64,000 nt of DNA, taken from the NCBI RefSeq assembly GCF_046105845.1, contig NZ_CP151004.1. One strand, 5' to 3'. Under the pieces are notes generated by a model. It worked only from the letters and a program-made list of their open reading frames with translations. It had not been told where the DNA came from and made no database searches. Numbering within the stretch: position 1 is the stretch's first letter; every line of letters starts with the position of its first letter. The position numbers were made by a program, and so were the translations under genes. The stretch comes from Escherichia coli. Its GTDB lineage: Bacteria > Pseudomonadota > Gammaproteobacteria > Enterobacterales > Enterobacteriaceae. Shown in pieces: positions 37,978 to 43,089 of this stretch.

Positions 37978-38862
37978 ATGAAGCCTTTTTTGCGCTGGTG
38001 TTTCGTTGCGACAGCACTTACGCTTGCAGGATGCAGTAATACTTCCTGGCGTAAAAGTGAAGTCCTCGCGGTACCATTGCAACCGACTTTACAGCAGGAA
38101 GTGATTCTGGCACGTATGGAACAAATCCTTGCCAGTCGGGCTTTAACCGATGACGAACGCGCACAGCTTTTATATGAGCGCGGAGTGTTGTATGATAGTC
38201 TCGGTCTGAGGGCATTAGCGCGTAACGATTTTTCGCAAGCGCTGGCAATCCGACCGGATATGCCTGAAGTATTCAATTACTTAGGCATATATTTAACGCA
38301 GGCAGGCAATTTTGATGCTGCCTATGAAGCGTTTGATTCTGTACTTGAGCTTGATCCAACTTACAACTACGCGCACTTGAATCGCGGGATCGCATTATAT
38401 TACGGCGGTCGTGACAAGTTAGCGCAAGATGATCTGCTGGCGTTTTATCAAGACGATCCCAATGATCCTTTCCGTAGTCTGTGGCTTTATCTCGCCGAGC
38501 AGAAGCTCGATGAGAAGCAGGCTAAAGAAGTGTTGAAACAGCACTTCGAAAAATCGGATAAGGAACAGTGGGGATGGAACATTGTCGAGTTCTACCTGGG
38601 CAACATTAGCGAACAAACGTTAATGGAAAGGCTCAAGGCGGACGCAACGGATAACACCTCGCTCGCTGAGCATCTCAGTGAAACCAACTTCTATTTAGGT
38701 AAGTACTACCTAAGTCTGGGGGATTTGGACAGCGCCACGGCACTGTTCAAACTGGCGGTTGCCAACAACGTTCATAACTTTGTTGAGCACCGATACGCAT
38801 TGTTGGAATTATCGCTCCTGGGCCAGGACCAAGATGACCTGGCAGAATCGGACCAGCAATAG
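37978..38862 (+). CDS. nlpI: TPR-repeat outer-membrane lipoprotein NlpI, 294 aa
   Basis: [28 protein letters not shown] (lipobox LAGC); TPR-like repeats. Confidence 0.95.
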
Positions 38863-39041
38863 CTGACGTACACATCAGCCCGTAATCTTTTTTGATTGCC
38901 ATCACCTTAACGGGTGAGGGCGTTGTTGTTCGTTAATACACCTACTTTGAGCCGGTTCACACTTTTCAATGAAAATTGCTGATCAATTTCATGATGAGTT
39001 ATGTAGACTGGCCGCCATTAATTTTGAGGCACACGTACTAC

Positions 39042-40943
39042 ATGGCTGAATTCGAAACCACTTTTGCAGATCTGGGCCTGAAGGCTCCTATCCTTGAAGC
39101 CCTTAACGATCTGGGTTACGAAAAACCATCTCCAATTCAGGCAGAGTGTATTCCACATCTGCTGAATGGCCGCGACGTCCTGGGTATGGCCCAGACGGGG
39201 AGCGGAAAAACTGCAGCATTCTCTTTACCTCTGCTGCAGAATCTTGATCCTGAGCTGAAAGCACCACAGATTCTGGTGCTGGCACCGACCCGCGAACTGG
39301 CGGTACAGGTTGCTGAGGCAATGACGGATTTCTCTAAACACATGCGCGGCGTAAACGTGGTTGCCCTGTACGGCGGCCAGCGTTATGACGTGCAATTACG
39401 CGCCCTGCGTCAGGGGCCGCAGATCGTTGTCGGTACTCCGGGCCGTCTGCTGGATCACCTGAAACGTGGCACTCTGGACCTTTCTAAACTGAGCGGTCTG
39501 GTTCTGGATGAAGCTGACGAAATGCTGCGCATGGGCTTCATCGAAGACGTTGAAACCATTATGGCGCAGATCCCGGAAGGTCATCAGACCGCTCTGTTCT
39601 CTGCAACCATGCCGGAAGCGATTCGTCGCATTACCCGCCGCTTTATGAAAGAGCCGCAGGAAGTGCGCATTCAGTCCAGCGTGACTACCCGTCCTGACAT
39701 CAGCCAGAGCTACTGGACTGTCTGGGGTATGCGTAAAAACGAAGCACTGGTACGTTTCCTGGAAGCGGAAGATTTTGATGCGGCGATTATCTTCGTTCGT
39801 ACCAAAAATGCGACTCTGGAAGTGGCTGAAGCTCTTGAGCGTAACGGCTACAACAGCGCCGCGCTAAACGGTGACATGAACCAGGCGCTGCGTGAGCAGA
39901 CACTGGAACGCCTGAAAGATGGTCGTCTGGACATCCTGATTGCGACCGACGTTGCGGCCCGTGGCCTGGACGTTGAGCGTATCAGCCTGGTAGTTAACTA
40001 CGATATCCCGATGGATTCTGAGTCTTACGTTCACCGTATCGGTCGTACTGGTCGTGCGGGCCGTGCTGGCCGTGCGCTGCTGTTCGTTGAGAACCGTGAG
40101 CGTCGTCTGCTGCGCAACATTGAACGCACCATGAAGCTGACCATTCCGGAAGTTGAACTGCCGAACGCAGAACTGCTGGGCAAACGTCGTCTGGAAAAAT
40201 TCGCCGCTAAAGTACAGCAGCAGCTGGAAAGCAGCGATCTGGATCAATACCGTGCACTGCTGAGCAAAATTCAGCCGACTGCCGAAGGCGAAGAGCTGGA
40301 TCTCGAAACTCTGGCCGCCGCACTGCTGAAAATGGCACAGGGTGAACGTACTCTGATTGTTCCGCCAGATGCGCCGATGCGTCCGAAACGTGAATTCCGT
40401 GACCGTGATGACCGTGGTCCGCGCGATCGTAACGACCGTGGCCCGCGTGGTGACCGTGAAGATCGTCCGCGTCGTGAACGTCGTGATGTTGGCGATATGC
40501 AGCTGTACCGCATTGAAGTGGGCCGCGATGATGGTGTTGAAGTTCGTCATATCGTTGGCGCGATTGCTAACGAAGGTGACATCAGCAGCCGTTACATTGG
40601 TAACATCAAGCTGTTTGCTTCTCACTCCACCATCGAACTGCCAAAAGGTATGCCGGGTGAAGTGCTGCAACACTTTACGCGTACTCGCATTCTCAACAAG
40701 CCGATGAACATGCAGTTACTGGGCGATGCACAGCCGCATACTGGCGGTGAGCGTCGTGGCGGTGGTCGTGGTTTCGGTGGCGAACGTCGTGAAGGTGGTC
40801 GTGAAGGCGGTCGTAACTTCAGCGGTGAACGCCGTGAAGGTGGTCGTGGTGATGGTCGTCGTTTTAGCGGCGAACGTCGTGAAGGCCGCGCTCCGCGTCG
40901 TGATGACTCTACCGGTCGTCGTCGTTTCGGTGGTGATGCGTAA
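39042..40943 (+). CDS. deaD: Cold-shock DEAD-box RNA helicase DeaD/CsdA
   Basis: ORF 38976..40943; conserved start [33 protein letters not shown] at ATG 39042; Walker [13 protein letters not shown] motif [11 protein letters not shown]; RGG/RE-rich C-terminal tail. Confidence 0.95.
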
Positions 40944-40969
40944 TCATCGCTGAACAGCGAACACAATCT

Positions 40970-40987
40970 GTAAAATAATATATACAG
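40970..40987. promoter_or_regulatory. TyrR-box-like sequence upstream of mtr
   Basis: TGTAAAataataTATACA versus consensus TGTAAA-N6-TTTACA (one mismatch); overlaps the deaD terminator. Confidence 0.45.
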
Positions 40988-41018
40988 CCCCGATTTTTAC
41001 CATCGGGGCTTTTTTTCT
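40986..41018 (+). terminator. Rho-independent terminator after deaD
   Basis: cagccccgatttttaccatcggggctttttttct. Confidence 0.8.
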
Positions 41019-41026
41019 GTCTTTTG

Positions 41027-41047
41027 TACTCGTGTACTGGTACAGTG
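41027..41047. promoter_or_regulatory. TrpR operator-like palindrome in the mtr promoter region
   Basis: gtACTcGTgtACTgGTACagt resembles the trp operator half-sites ACTAGT..ACTAGTAC; about 50 bp upstream of the mtr ATG. Confidence 0.5.
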
Positions 41048-41096
41048 CAATGCATAACAACGCAGTCGCACTATTTTTCACTGGAGAAAAGCCCTC

Positions 41097-42341
41097 ATGG
41101 CAACACTAACCACCACCCAAACGTCACCGTCGCTGCTTGGCGGCGTGGTGATCATCGGCGGCACCATTATTGGCGCAGGGATGTTTTCTCTGCCAGTGGT
41201 TATGTCCGGGGCGTGGTTCTTCTGGTCAATGGCGGCGCTGATCTTTACCTGGTTCTGTATGCTGCATTCCGGCTTGATGATTCTGGAAGCTAACCTGAAT
41301 TATCGAATCGGTTCTAGCTTTGACACCATCACCAAAGATTTGCTGGGCAAAGGCTGGAACGTAGTCAACGGCATTTCCATTGCCTTTGTGCTCTATATCC
41401 TGACTTACGCCTATATTTCTGCCAGCGGTTCGATTCTGCATCACACCTTCGCGGAGATGTCGCTGAACGTCCCTGCACGGGCAGCTGGATTTGGTTTTGC
41501 ACTGCTGGTAGCGTTCGTGGTGTGGTTGAGTACGAAAGCTGTCAGCCGGATGACAGCAATTGTGCTGGGGGCGAAAGTCATTACTTTCTTCCTCACCTTC
41601 GGCAGCCTGCTGGGGCATGTACAGCCAACGACCTTGTTCAACGTTGCCGAAAGCAATGCGTCTTATGCGCCGTATCTGCTGATGACACTGCCATTCTGTC
41701 TGGCATCGTTTGGTTATCACGGTAACGTGCCGAGCCTGATGAAGTATTACGGCAAAGATCCGAAAACCATCGTGAAATGCCTGGTGTACGGTACGCTGAT
41801 GGCGCTGGCGCTGTATACCATCTGGTTGCTGGCGACGATGGGCAACATCCCTCGTCCGGAGTTTATCGGCATTGCCGAGAAGGGCGGTAACATTGATGTG
41901 CTGGTACAGGCATTAAGCGGCGTGCTGAACAGCCGTAGCCTGGATCTGCTGCTGGTCGTGTTCTCAAACTTTGCGGTAGCGAGTTCGTTCCTCGGCGTTA
42001 CGCTGGGTTTGTTTGACTATCTGGCAGATCTGTTTGGTTTCGATGACTCGGCTATGGGCCGCTTGAAAACAGCATTGTTGACCTTTGCACCGCCTGTTGT
42101 GGGTGGTCTGCTGTTCCCGAATGGATTCCTGTACGCCATTGGCTATGCTGGCTTAGCAGCTACCATCTGGGCGGCAATTGTACCGGCGCTGTTGGCCCGC
42201 GCATCGCGTAAACGCTTTGGCAGCCCGAAATTCCGCGTCTGGGGCGGTAAGCCGATGATTGCGCTGATTCTGGTGTTTGGCGTCGGCAACGCACTGGTGC
42301 ATATTTTATCGAGCTTTAATTTGCTGCCGGTGTATCAGTAA
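41097..42341 (+). CDS. mtr: Tryptophan-specific permease Mtr, 414 aa
   Basis: [50 protein letters not shown]. Confidence 0.95.
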
Positions 42342-42349
42342 TTGAACGA

Positions 42350-42374
42350 GCCGGATGAGCAGTTTTCATCCGGC
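42350..42374. other. Stem-loop just past the mtr stop (weak terminator or junction hairpin)
   Basis: gccggatgagcagttttcatccggc: 8-bp stem, no U-tract. Confidence 0.35.
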
Positions 42375-42401
42375 AATAATTCACAAGTACACGAGATGGT
42401 A

Positions 42402-42932
42402 TCAAATAAACCCCTGTTTATTATAAAGTTCTTCAGCGAGAGCTTCCCCGTGCTCATCGAAAAAAGCATCGGCGATAGTTAAATTTTCTGCCTTAGGATT
42501 TGCCGTTATTTTGCTACCATTGGCATCAAATTCGAGCGCGATAGCGGTCTCCGAACCCCACCAGTAATAATAAATTAGCGCAAAATTATTTTCCCCTGGC
42601 GTAATAAACTTCTCGATTCCCCGCACACAGGCCATGAGTGGCATGAAGATTTCATAGCTCTCTGAGAGAAATATGTGATCCATCGTGACTATCTGTGTTT
42701 CTTTATTAAAGTTGATATGTTCGGCATAAATATTCTTTTCACTTTCACCAGAATTACAAGCTGCAAGATTGTTAAGCATTTTTGCAGGATCGCCGTACAA
42801 CCGCTGCTTCTCGATAAACCATGGCAACCAGTCGTCATGGTCTTTGATATTTGTTGCTGGTGAATGGAAAAACTTCTCGAGGTTACTCTCGGTAATATGT
42901 GCATGAAGAAAAAAGGAAGCCGGTTCACTCAT
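42402..42932 (-). CDS. Hypothetical acidic cytoplasmic protein, 176 aa, no recognizable family
   Basis: ATG at 42930-42932 (minus); MSEPASFFLHAHITESNLEKFFHSPATNIKDHDDW...IYYYWWGSETAIALEF; no signal peptide or TM segment; AT-rich; lies between mtr and yhbW, which I recall as adjacent in K-12. Confidence 0.6.
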   Translation of the reverse strand: MSEPASFFLHAHITESNLEKFFHSPATNIKDHDDWLPWFIEKQRLYGDPAKMLNNLAACNSGESEKNIYAEHINFNKETQIVTMDHIFLSESYEIFMPLMACVRGIEKFITPGENNFALIYYYWWGSETAIALEFDANGSKITANPKAENLTIADAFFDEHGEALAEELYNKQGFI

Positions 42933-43089
42933 AATGATTTTCTCTGGTAATAAGTCGATTTGTTCATTTCTCTGTTTGGCGATGATAAAACGATGACTAT
43001 TTTATAAAAGTACAGAACTGGACCTTTTATCTATTTCATATCATAAGAAAATATATACAAGAACTGGCTCAGAATAAGCGGAATACGAA

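Follow-up and report, generated by a model that had tools for sequence, protein, structure and literature searches.

The C-terminal tail of the Escherichia coli RNA helicase DeaD differs in length among strains by whole codons, and this variation very probably follows from the way the tail is encoded: a periodic peptide in a predicted disordered region, written with biased codons, yields in-phase direct repeats, and misalignment of these repeats yields in-frame length alleles. The periodic peptide, spelled in CGT, GGT/GGC and GAA codons, fills the DNA with short direct repeats in codon phase. Misalignment between them would occasionally delete or duplicate whole blocks in frame, usually by replication slippage and possibly by other short-homology routes, and the outcome would be a series of length alleles. 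The DNA analysed here (the window, a stretch of 64,000 nt of contig NZ_CP151004.1) carries one such length allele, a 12-nt duplication encoding REGG. The gene and its tail domain are already known and annotated, and the feature itself is ordinary; a literature search for polymorphism of the deaD tail found nothing.

Gene Identity and Domain Organization

The gene is deaD, as had been stated in an earlier note made from the sequence alone. Its product scored 1392 bits against the NCBIfam DeaD/CsdA equivalog NF008642 (cutoff 989), with residues 1–633 covered. The Pfam domains DEAD, Helicase_C, DeaD_dimer, DbpA and DeaD_C follow one another in this order, all five above their cutoffs, and PDB entries 5gju, 5gi4 and 5b88 match the three folded parts of DeaD. 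According to the ORF list and the RefSeq features under a 5-kb match, nlpI/yrbN lie upstream of the gene and mtr downstream. The sole difference between the encoded protein and K-12 DeaD is the insertion of four residues, REGG (633 vs. 629 aa).

AlphaFold modelled the RNA-binding domain as a beta-alpha-beta-beta-alpha-beta fold with pLDDT values of 65–77. Chain A of 5b88 ends at ...LLGDAQ, which leaves the tail outside all solved DeaD structures. Downstream of the gene, the terminator-like hairpin itself spans positions 40986–41010. An Rfam search returned no RNA family match, the two sub-threshold matches both lying over the terminator.

Table 1. Coordinates of deaD, its tail-coding repeats and neighbouring features in the window.
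Feature	Position	Strand	Support or remarks
deaD (csdA) CDS, 1,902 nt, 633 aa, cold-shock DEAD-box RNA helicase	39042..40943	+	NCBIfam NF008642, Pfam, RefSeq
RNA-binding domain (DbpA/RRM-like), directly preceding the tail	40482..40733	+	Identical to PDB 5b88 chain A
Antisense ORF, Pro/Arg/Ser-rich, 114 aa, spurious	40622..40966	−	Stop-free back-translations
Alternative-frame ORF, Val-rich, 75 aa, spurious	40726..40953	+	Stop-free back-translations
Coding region of the 66-aa disordered (predicted) Arg/Gly/Glu-rich C-terminal tail	40743..40940	+	Pfam PF12343 DeaD_C
Unit 1, 12 aa, with the GGCGGTG direct repeats bounding the −15 nt allele	40743..40778	+	Codon layout
Unit 2, 15 aa in the window, 11 aa in K-12	40779..40823	+	Codon layout, strain alignment
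Perfect 17-nt direct repeat GGCGAACGTCGTGAAGG, left copy	40779..40795	+	Bounds the −78 nt deletion and the reciprocal duplication
12-nt tandem duplication, CGTGAAGGTGGT followed by CGTGAAGGCGGT (REGG twice)	40788..40811	+	Derived, specific to a deaD haplogroup
Unit 3, 15 aa	40824..40868	+	Missing from the 614-aa allele and from the 618-aa allele on the window background
Unit 4 with the conserved terminal motif, 24 aa	40869..40940	+	(CGT)3 at 40917–40925
Perfect 17-nt direct repeat GGCGAACGTCGTGAAGG, right copy	40869..40885	+	
Intrinsic terminator-like hairpin and T-run, 3′ of deaD	40986..41017	+	9-bp stem with 6 GC pairs, then TTTTTTTCTGT

Composition and Units of the Tail

The tail matched Pfam PF12343 DeaD_C, described as a "C-terminal disordered region", over the complete profile (positions 1–62 of 62; residues 568–633; 51.9 bits against a cutoff of 23.3). 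It contains 20 Arg, 22 Gly, 8 Glu, 4 Asp and 4 Phe residues, with Arg and Gly together making up 64% and a net charge of +8. The corresponding residues 91–157 of the AlphaFold model had pLDDT values below 50 and no secondary structure, and the tail is predicted to be an intrinsically disordered region.

Read in the deaD frame, the tail consists of four GERR(E/G)GGR-type units of 12, 15, 15 and 24 aa, the last including the terminal motif. All four follow the pattern GERR(E/G)GGR...F(G/S), with one Phe per unit; GGR occurs four times and GERRE three times. The extreme C-terminus, P..RR...RRR..DA, is conserved and is kept in every E. coli deletion allele, and P142, R143, R150–152, D156 and A157 at this end were invariant across 26 species.

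The RGG/RG motif classes (tri-RGG, di-RGG, tri-RG and di-RG) are definitions from the eukaryotic literature. By these definitions the tail does not qualify as a canonical RGG box: RGG occurs once, and di-RG is the only one of the four patterns present. The earlier description of an "RGG/RE-rich tail" was loose about RGG.

DeaD is a dimer whose main RNA anchor is the RNA-binding domain and not the tail, and a construct without the C-terminal tail keeps activity (PMC11850223). The basic C-terminal domain has been proposed as an ATP-independent annealing site (PMC3590231), and full-length DeaD, when purified, undergoes phase separation in vitro and gives rise to dynamic foci in cells (PMC12758526). 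The tail may thus serve as a non-specific RNA tether or annealing surface. It may also drive DeaD condensation through multivalent interactions, and the gain or loss of units would then shift valence stepwise; a literature search found no tail-deletion test of DeaD phase separation.

Tandem Repeats in the Tail-Coding DNA

Tandem repeats encoding the DeaD tail had been placed at 40741–40925. The tandem-repeat finder (TRF) supported this placement, the coding tail being slightly longer, and reported a 45-nt period at 40779–40885 (2.4 copies, 80% matches, score 144) and a 12-nt period at 40786–40814 (2.4 copies, score 51). The repeat unit quoted in the earlier note is the 25-mer GGCGAACGTCGTGAAGGTGGTCGTG at 40779–40803. 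The 17-mer GGCGAACGTCGTGAAGG occurs in two exact copies and in one copy with two mismatches; with up to three mismatches allowed, it had four matches in the window against 0.2 expected, and 0 of 100 shuffles reached four. The 198-nt tail region contained 28 maximal direct repeats of at least 7 nt, compared with 0–5 in control blocks of the same size from deaD, and the spacing of all 28 is a multiple of three.

Arg, Gly and Glu in the tail are encoded almost exclusively by CGT, GGT/GGC and GAA. Shuffled peptides of equal composition gave TRF scores of 29 ± 23, with 0 of 1000 as high as the observed 144, whereas 1000 back-translations of the tail peptide with the codon usage of the gene gave 103 ± 49 (P = 0.17). 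The longest repeat was likewise within the range of the back-translations (17 vs. 14.8 ± 3.2 nt, P = 0.26). Shared 8-mers were the sole high metric (40 vs. 23 ± 7, P = 0.016), because the CGT/GGT preference is even stronger in the tail. Since the DNA is more repetitive than expected from shuffled peptides but not more than expected from back-translations, the periodicity is a property of the peptide, which codon bias carries over into the DNA as repeats.

Recent DNA duplication or gene conversion was rejected as the source of the 45-nt periodicity, the repetition being within the expectation from the peptide. A role of the region in mRNA structure was unsupported (folding z-score 0.06).

Overlapping Open Reading Frames

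The two overlapping ORFs listed in Table 1, which the earlier note had called spurious, were recovered at exactly its coordinates. All 2000 back-translations of the tail peptide left both frames free of stops, and uniform codon use made no difference; the two ORFs are open because of the R/G/E composition of the tail and are its by-products. That either is a real gene is virtually inconceivable: they do stay open for 75 and 114 codons, but so do these frames in all random back-translations of the DeaD tail, strain-variable sites sit at third-codon positions of deaD and leave the DeaD protein invariant, RefSeq annotates neither ORF, and the region has no RNA family match and no unusual RNA folding.

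Length Alleles among Complete Genomes

Junction-specific searches with strict E-value limits across 5,426 complete E. coli genomes revealed seven length alleles: the standard one, +12, two types of −12, −15, −78 and −132 nt (Table 2). The standard length was found in about 96.6% of the 5,423 matching genomes, followed by +12 at 2.9%, and each of the others stayed below 0.4%. Six of the seven complete-genome alleles have direct-repeat endpoints, the WP2-S18 type being the one with about 1 nt of exact homology. The −15 nt allele (ET776/ES9) is missing GAGCGTCGTGGCGGT.

Table 2. Non-standard tail length alleles in complete E. coli genomes.
Allele	Genomes	Endpoints
+12 nt (the window)	157	Tandem 12-nt unit
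−78 nt	21	Perfect 17-nt repeats (18 nt on the K-12 background)
−132 nt	2	GCGTCGTG (8 nt)
−15 nt	2	GGCGGTG (7 nt)
−12 nt, Ec1120 type	2	CGTG (4 nt)
−12 nt, WP2-S18 type	1	About 1 nt of exact homology

Every allele seen was in frame, because the direct repeats are spaced by multiples of three and lie in codon phase. With no frame shift among them, a phase-variable contingency locus was rejected. By protein length, alleles of 585, 603, 614, 618, 624, 625, 628, 629, 630, 633, 640 and 655 aa are known.

The earlier note had proposed running a tandem-repeat finder and comparing repeat number across strains. The former gave the significant scores of 144 and 51 and the latter showed length variation, so that neither of the outcomes it had named as counting against it, an invariant length or an insignificant score, was seen. 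Of what defines a VNTR (coding minisatellite), the tail has a significant tandem score and a copy number that varies among strains, but not the high variability of many common alleles, since one length dominates the complete genomes. The claim of a length-polymorphism hotspot stood as far as the seven alleles and their repeat-bounded endpoints go, although the word overstates the rate. "Hotspot" is a relative term here: the instability of the tail is modest, because one length accounts for about 96.6% of genomes and the duplication in the window has persisted through 0.7% flanking divergence.

The REGG Duplication

A 461-nt query was matched over its full length solely in the closest relatives of the window, and over 449 nt in most genomes, including those of K-12 type. 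The REGG duplication was absent from K-12, O157, E. albertii, E. whittamii, Escherichia sp. E1V33 and Salmonella. In the last four, unit 2 has 11 aa, and the duplication is therefore derived. It was present in 157 of the 5,426 complete genomes (about 2.9%), all identical across the junction, and 156 genomes were at least 99% identical to the window over 5 kb, which suggests that the duplication arose once, within one deaD haplogroup.

The nearest of these 156 genomes differs from the window by 0.7%, and a single synonymous base separates the two REGG copies of the window, GGT in the first and GGC in the second; the duplication therefore appears old and stably inherited. GGT and GGC are also the two single-copy states, found in O157-type and K-12-type alleles. 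This pattern would fit an old duplication or an unequal exchange between alleles as well as it fits slippage.

Recurrence of the −78 nt Deletion

The 21 genomes with the −78 nt allele were spread over four flanking haplotypes. The flanks of 1403KP differed from those of the other three haplotypes by 115–120 SNPs in 3,240 nt and matched non-deleted ST131-type genomes, e.g., O25b:H4 and JJ1887. The SCEC020001 group is a 14-genome clinical clone in which the allele is fixed, and its next-best matches were non-deleted genomes with the same flanks, ranked above other deletion carriers. Because 1403KP and SCEC020001 each have non-deleted relatives with matching flanks, the deletion, judged by these haplotypes, has at least two independent origins and probably three or four. 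The allele was also found in Shigella boydii.

Search for Predicted Slippage Products

Since the window protein equals K-12 DeaD apart from REGG, full-length DeaD variants could be built, and these hypothetical proteins were sought as exact matches in a collection of about 15 billion proteins (Table 3). Ten non-repeat control indels were placed in the same tail. They comprised deletions and duplications of 1, 11, 15 and 26 aa, whose endpoints had no more than 2 nt of microhomology and flanks of little similarity.

Table 3. Exact-sequence look-up of full-length DeaD variants in the protein collection.
Variant	Protein length	Result
Control, wild type	629 aa	At least 1000 contigs
Control, +REGG	633 aa	At least 1000 contigs
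Control, −78 nt	603 aa	687 contigs
Predicted, unit 2 deleted	618 aa	125 contigs
Predicted, unit 3 deleted	614 aa	16 contigs, including Shigella boydii
Predicted, unit 2 duplicated	640 aa	11 contigs
Predicted, units 2 and 3 duplicated (reciprocal +78)	655 aa	5 contigs
Predicted, RRR to RR	628 aa	22 contigs
Predicted, RRR to RRRR	630 aa	4 contigs
Predicted, unit 3 duplicated	644 aa	Not found

Six of the seven predicted products were found, compared with 0 of the 10 non-repeat controls as exact proteins in the same collection (one-sided Fisher's test, p about 6 × 10−4). Repeat-bounded indels are specifically enriched in the tail, where presence or absence in the database reflects selection and clonal sampling in addition to mutation. 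The +78 duplication, absent from the complete genomes, was present in this larger collection.

Further predictions were recovered at low counts: a parallel REGG duplication in unit 3 (2 contigs in the protein look-up), loss of unit 3 on the background of the window itself (2 contigs) and GGG to GG (1 contig). Among the complete-genome alleles, −15 was present on 43 contigs, the Ec1120-type −12 on 9 and −132 on 4, and the WP2-S18-type protein on the K-12 background had no exact match in the collection. Three expansions on the window background, namely a triple REGG, a 45-nt unit duplication and a second REGG duplication in unit 3, were not found.

Variation between Species

Across 80 Enterobacterales loci, no indels were detected in the stretch of the RNA-binding domain from YIGNIKLF to NMQL. 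The segment from YIGNIKLF to the stop ranged from 99 to 141 aa in full-length Enterobacterales sequences, because the number of tail units differs; other repeats, e.g., APRRDD, also expand. An alignment of 67 Enterobacterales showed 93 distinct gap runs in the tail (66 aa) against 6 in the much longer core (352 aa); the segment of the RNA-binding domain had 15, and the Arg/Asp-rich linker (42 aa) had 36.

Discussion

From the sequence pattern, we infer replication slippage as the mechanism of tail length change. Unequal exchange or gene conversion by RecA-dependent homologous recombination, acting between misaligned repeats or different alleles, has a small chance of being the source instead. 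It would account for the GGT and GGC of the two REGG copies, the exact single-copy states of the O157-type and K-12-type alleles, and for the existence of reciprocal products (−78/+78 and −33/+33). However, efficient RecA-dependent exchange in E. coli usually needs roughly 25–30 nt, and the repeats in the tail, at 4–18 nt, fall far below this; deletions also occurred on more contigs than duplications. That the variant lengths are sequencing or assembly artefacts of repeat collapse or expansion is very improbable overall. Several alleles are indeed singletons or single-study pairs (FXCREC004/035, ET776/ES9 and WP2-S18), and two further ones are known from 1–2 ENA contigs only, but +12 in 157 and −78 in 21 complete genomes come from many laboratories and platforms with consistent flanking haplotypes. 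Assembly k-mers are usually longer than these repeats of at most 18 nt, and reads are longer by far; artefacts would also sit poorly with the failure of all ten control indels to appear. An artefact is thus unlikely for the common alleles and conceivable for singletons.

It is also unlikely that tail length is adaptively tuned, with recurrent deletions such as −78 selected through the condensation or cold-shock function of DeaD. The −78 allele has at least two origins, is fixed in a 14-genome clinical clone and was found on 687 contigs; DeaD forms condensates (PMC12758526), and the number of tail units differs between genera. Yet the commonest deletion has the longest perfect repeats at its ends, which is what mutation bias by itself would predict, the contig counts for −78 reflect clonal sampling, and about 96.6% of genomes retain one length. 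Misalignment between the in-phase repeats remains the reading we prefer for the allele series.

The lacI hotspots are the classic E. coli case of deletions and duplications between short direct repeats by RecA-independent slipped misalignment. As in lacI, the endpoints in deaD lie in direct repeats of 4–18 nt, reciprocal duplications exist, and the longest and closest repeats give the commonest product; unlike in lacI, the events are seen as natural variants of an expressed housekeeping gene, and none of them shifts the frame. Coding minisatellites, such as those of yeast cell-wall genes, and bacterial VNTR loci share with deaD an in-frame tandem unit and a strain-variable copy number, but deaD has about 2.4 imperfect copies (80% match) and one dominant allele, and would be a poor typing marker.

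The DeaD_C region of K-12 (PF12343) is the same gene, domain and residues as in the window, except that its unit 2 has 11 aa where the window has 15 aa through the 12-nt tandem duplication. The intrinsically disordered regions of Pseudomonas RhlE1/RhlE2 (PMC11260450), LAF-1, Dhh1 and Ded1 are likewise basic low-complexity extensions on a DEAD-box core, tied to RNA binding and phase separation and evolving fast by indels. Unlike these, the DeaD tail follows folded dimerisation and RRM-like domains, its role in condensation is putative, and it consists of a mixed-charge GERREGGR repeat, each unit with one Phe, and not of an RGG box.

The repeat tail explains the two spurious ORFs and the annotation difference between 633 and 629 aa, which by itself matters little. 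Gene prediction and pan-genome software should allow for deaD 3′ ends that differ in length but stay in frame. We consider it doubtful that unit number is a selectable dial, with alleles of 585–655 aa changing condensate valence and −78 having spread by function; if it were, the −78 deletion would have altered cold-shock, ribosome-assembly or persistence-related condensate behaviour, beyond mutation bias and hitch-hiking. The locus offers a clean natural example of how a periodic disordered peptide and biased codons would give a predictable series of in-frame alleles, and its natural tails of 18 to 88 residues provide material on how disordered length relates to annealing, condensation and growth in the cold.

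Conservation of DeaD and sequences flanking its gene

The 5 kb surrounding deaD (window 38000-43000) was compared with 5,426 complete E. coli genomes, and the nearest of them, PCN033 among others, were only 99.3% identical over this length. Even so, the encoded DeaD protein is that of K-12 except for REGG, the four residues added by a 12-nt tandem duplication. The stretch probably derives from a lineage of Escherichia or Shigella that these complete genomes do not include. The -78 nt allele, an in-frame tail deletion between perfect 17-nt repeats, was carried by all four sequenced laboratory derivatives of E. coli EC0026B, the parent isolate lying outside the collection.

RefSeq places the DeaD start at the ATG at 39042, while the mechanically called ORF opens at a TTG 66 nt further 5′ and encodes 655 aa. 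A tiny RefSeq-annotated gene, yrbN, shares its last 8 nt with the start of deaD. A 650-aa "DeaD" in the protein cluster (P0012) from the exact-sequence look-ups of DeaD variants may stem from an older upstream start call.

Both strands of the hairpin 3′ of deaD are called terminator-like: the (+) side has a T-run and the (-) side a TA-rich tail. A possible role is bidirectional termination, separating deaD from anything reading in from the mtr side. In E. coli strain 98200, an IS200C-family transposase is annotated approximately 215 nt past the deaD stop (positions 888-1044 of the extracted deaD locus of that strain), instead of mtr; in other strains mtr starts approximately 150 nt past the stop.

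Features in and around deaD (window positions)
Feature	Position	Strand	Location or role	Source
deaD start region, including yrbN overlap	38976-39049			ORF listing and RefSeq annotation
Repeat of 9-nt period, 3.6 copies, CGTGCTGGC	40044-40075		within DeaD helicase core	TRF
Arg/Asp-rich linker (DeaD aa 441-482)	40362-40487		joins dimerisation and RNA-binding domains	
Terminator-like hairpin	40986-41010	both	3′ of deaD	

Repeats and length variation within DeaD

The helicase-core repeat encodes a GRAGRAGRA run located C-terminal to the HRIGRTGR motif. In principle, slippage could also affect this short tandem repeat, where the surrounding motif region is conserved. Another 9-nt period was detected by TRF at 40363-40386, at the Arg/Asp-rich linker. 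When 67 Enterobacterales were aligned, 36 distinct gap runs fell within the 42 aa of the linker, whose length ranged from 33 to 55 aa. Judged from this alignment, the linker is a second indel hotspot between species.

The DeaD tails of other genera also contained expanded repeats. An additional RFSGER, encoded by an 18-nt duplication, was found in Salmonella enterica subsp. arizonae, and APRRDD was present twice in many Klebsiella, Kluyvera, Citrobacter and Raoultella, with four APRR(E/D) units in Enterobacter sp. 10-1. Comparison of these tail sequences indicates that different repeat families have been expanded in the DeaD tails of different genera.
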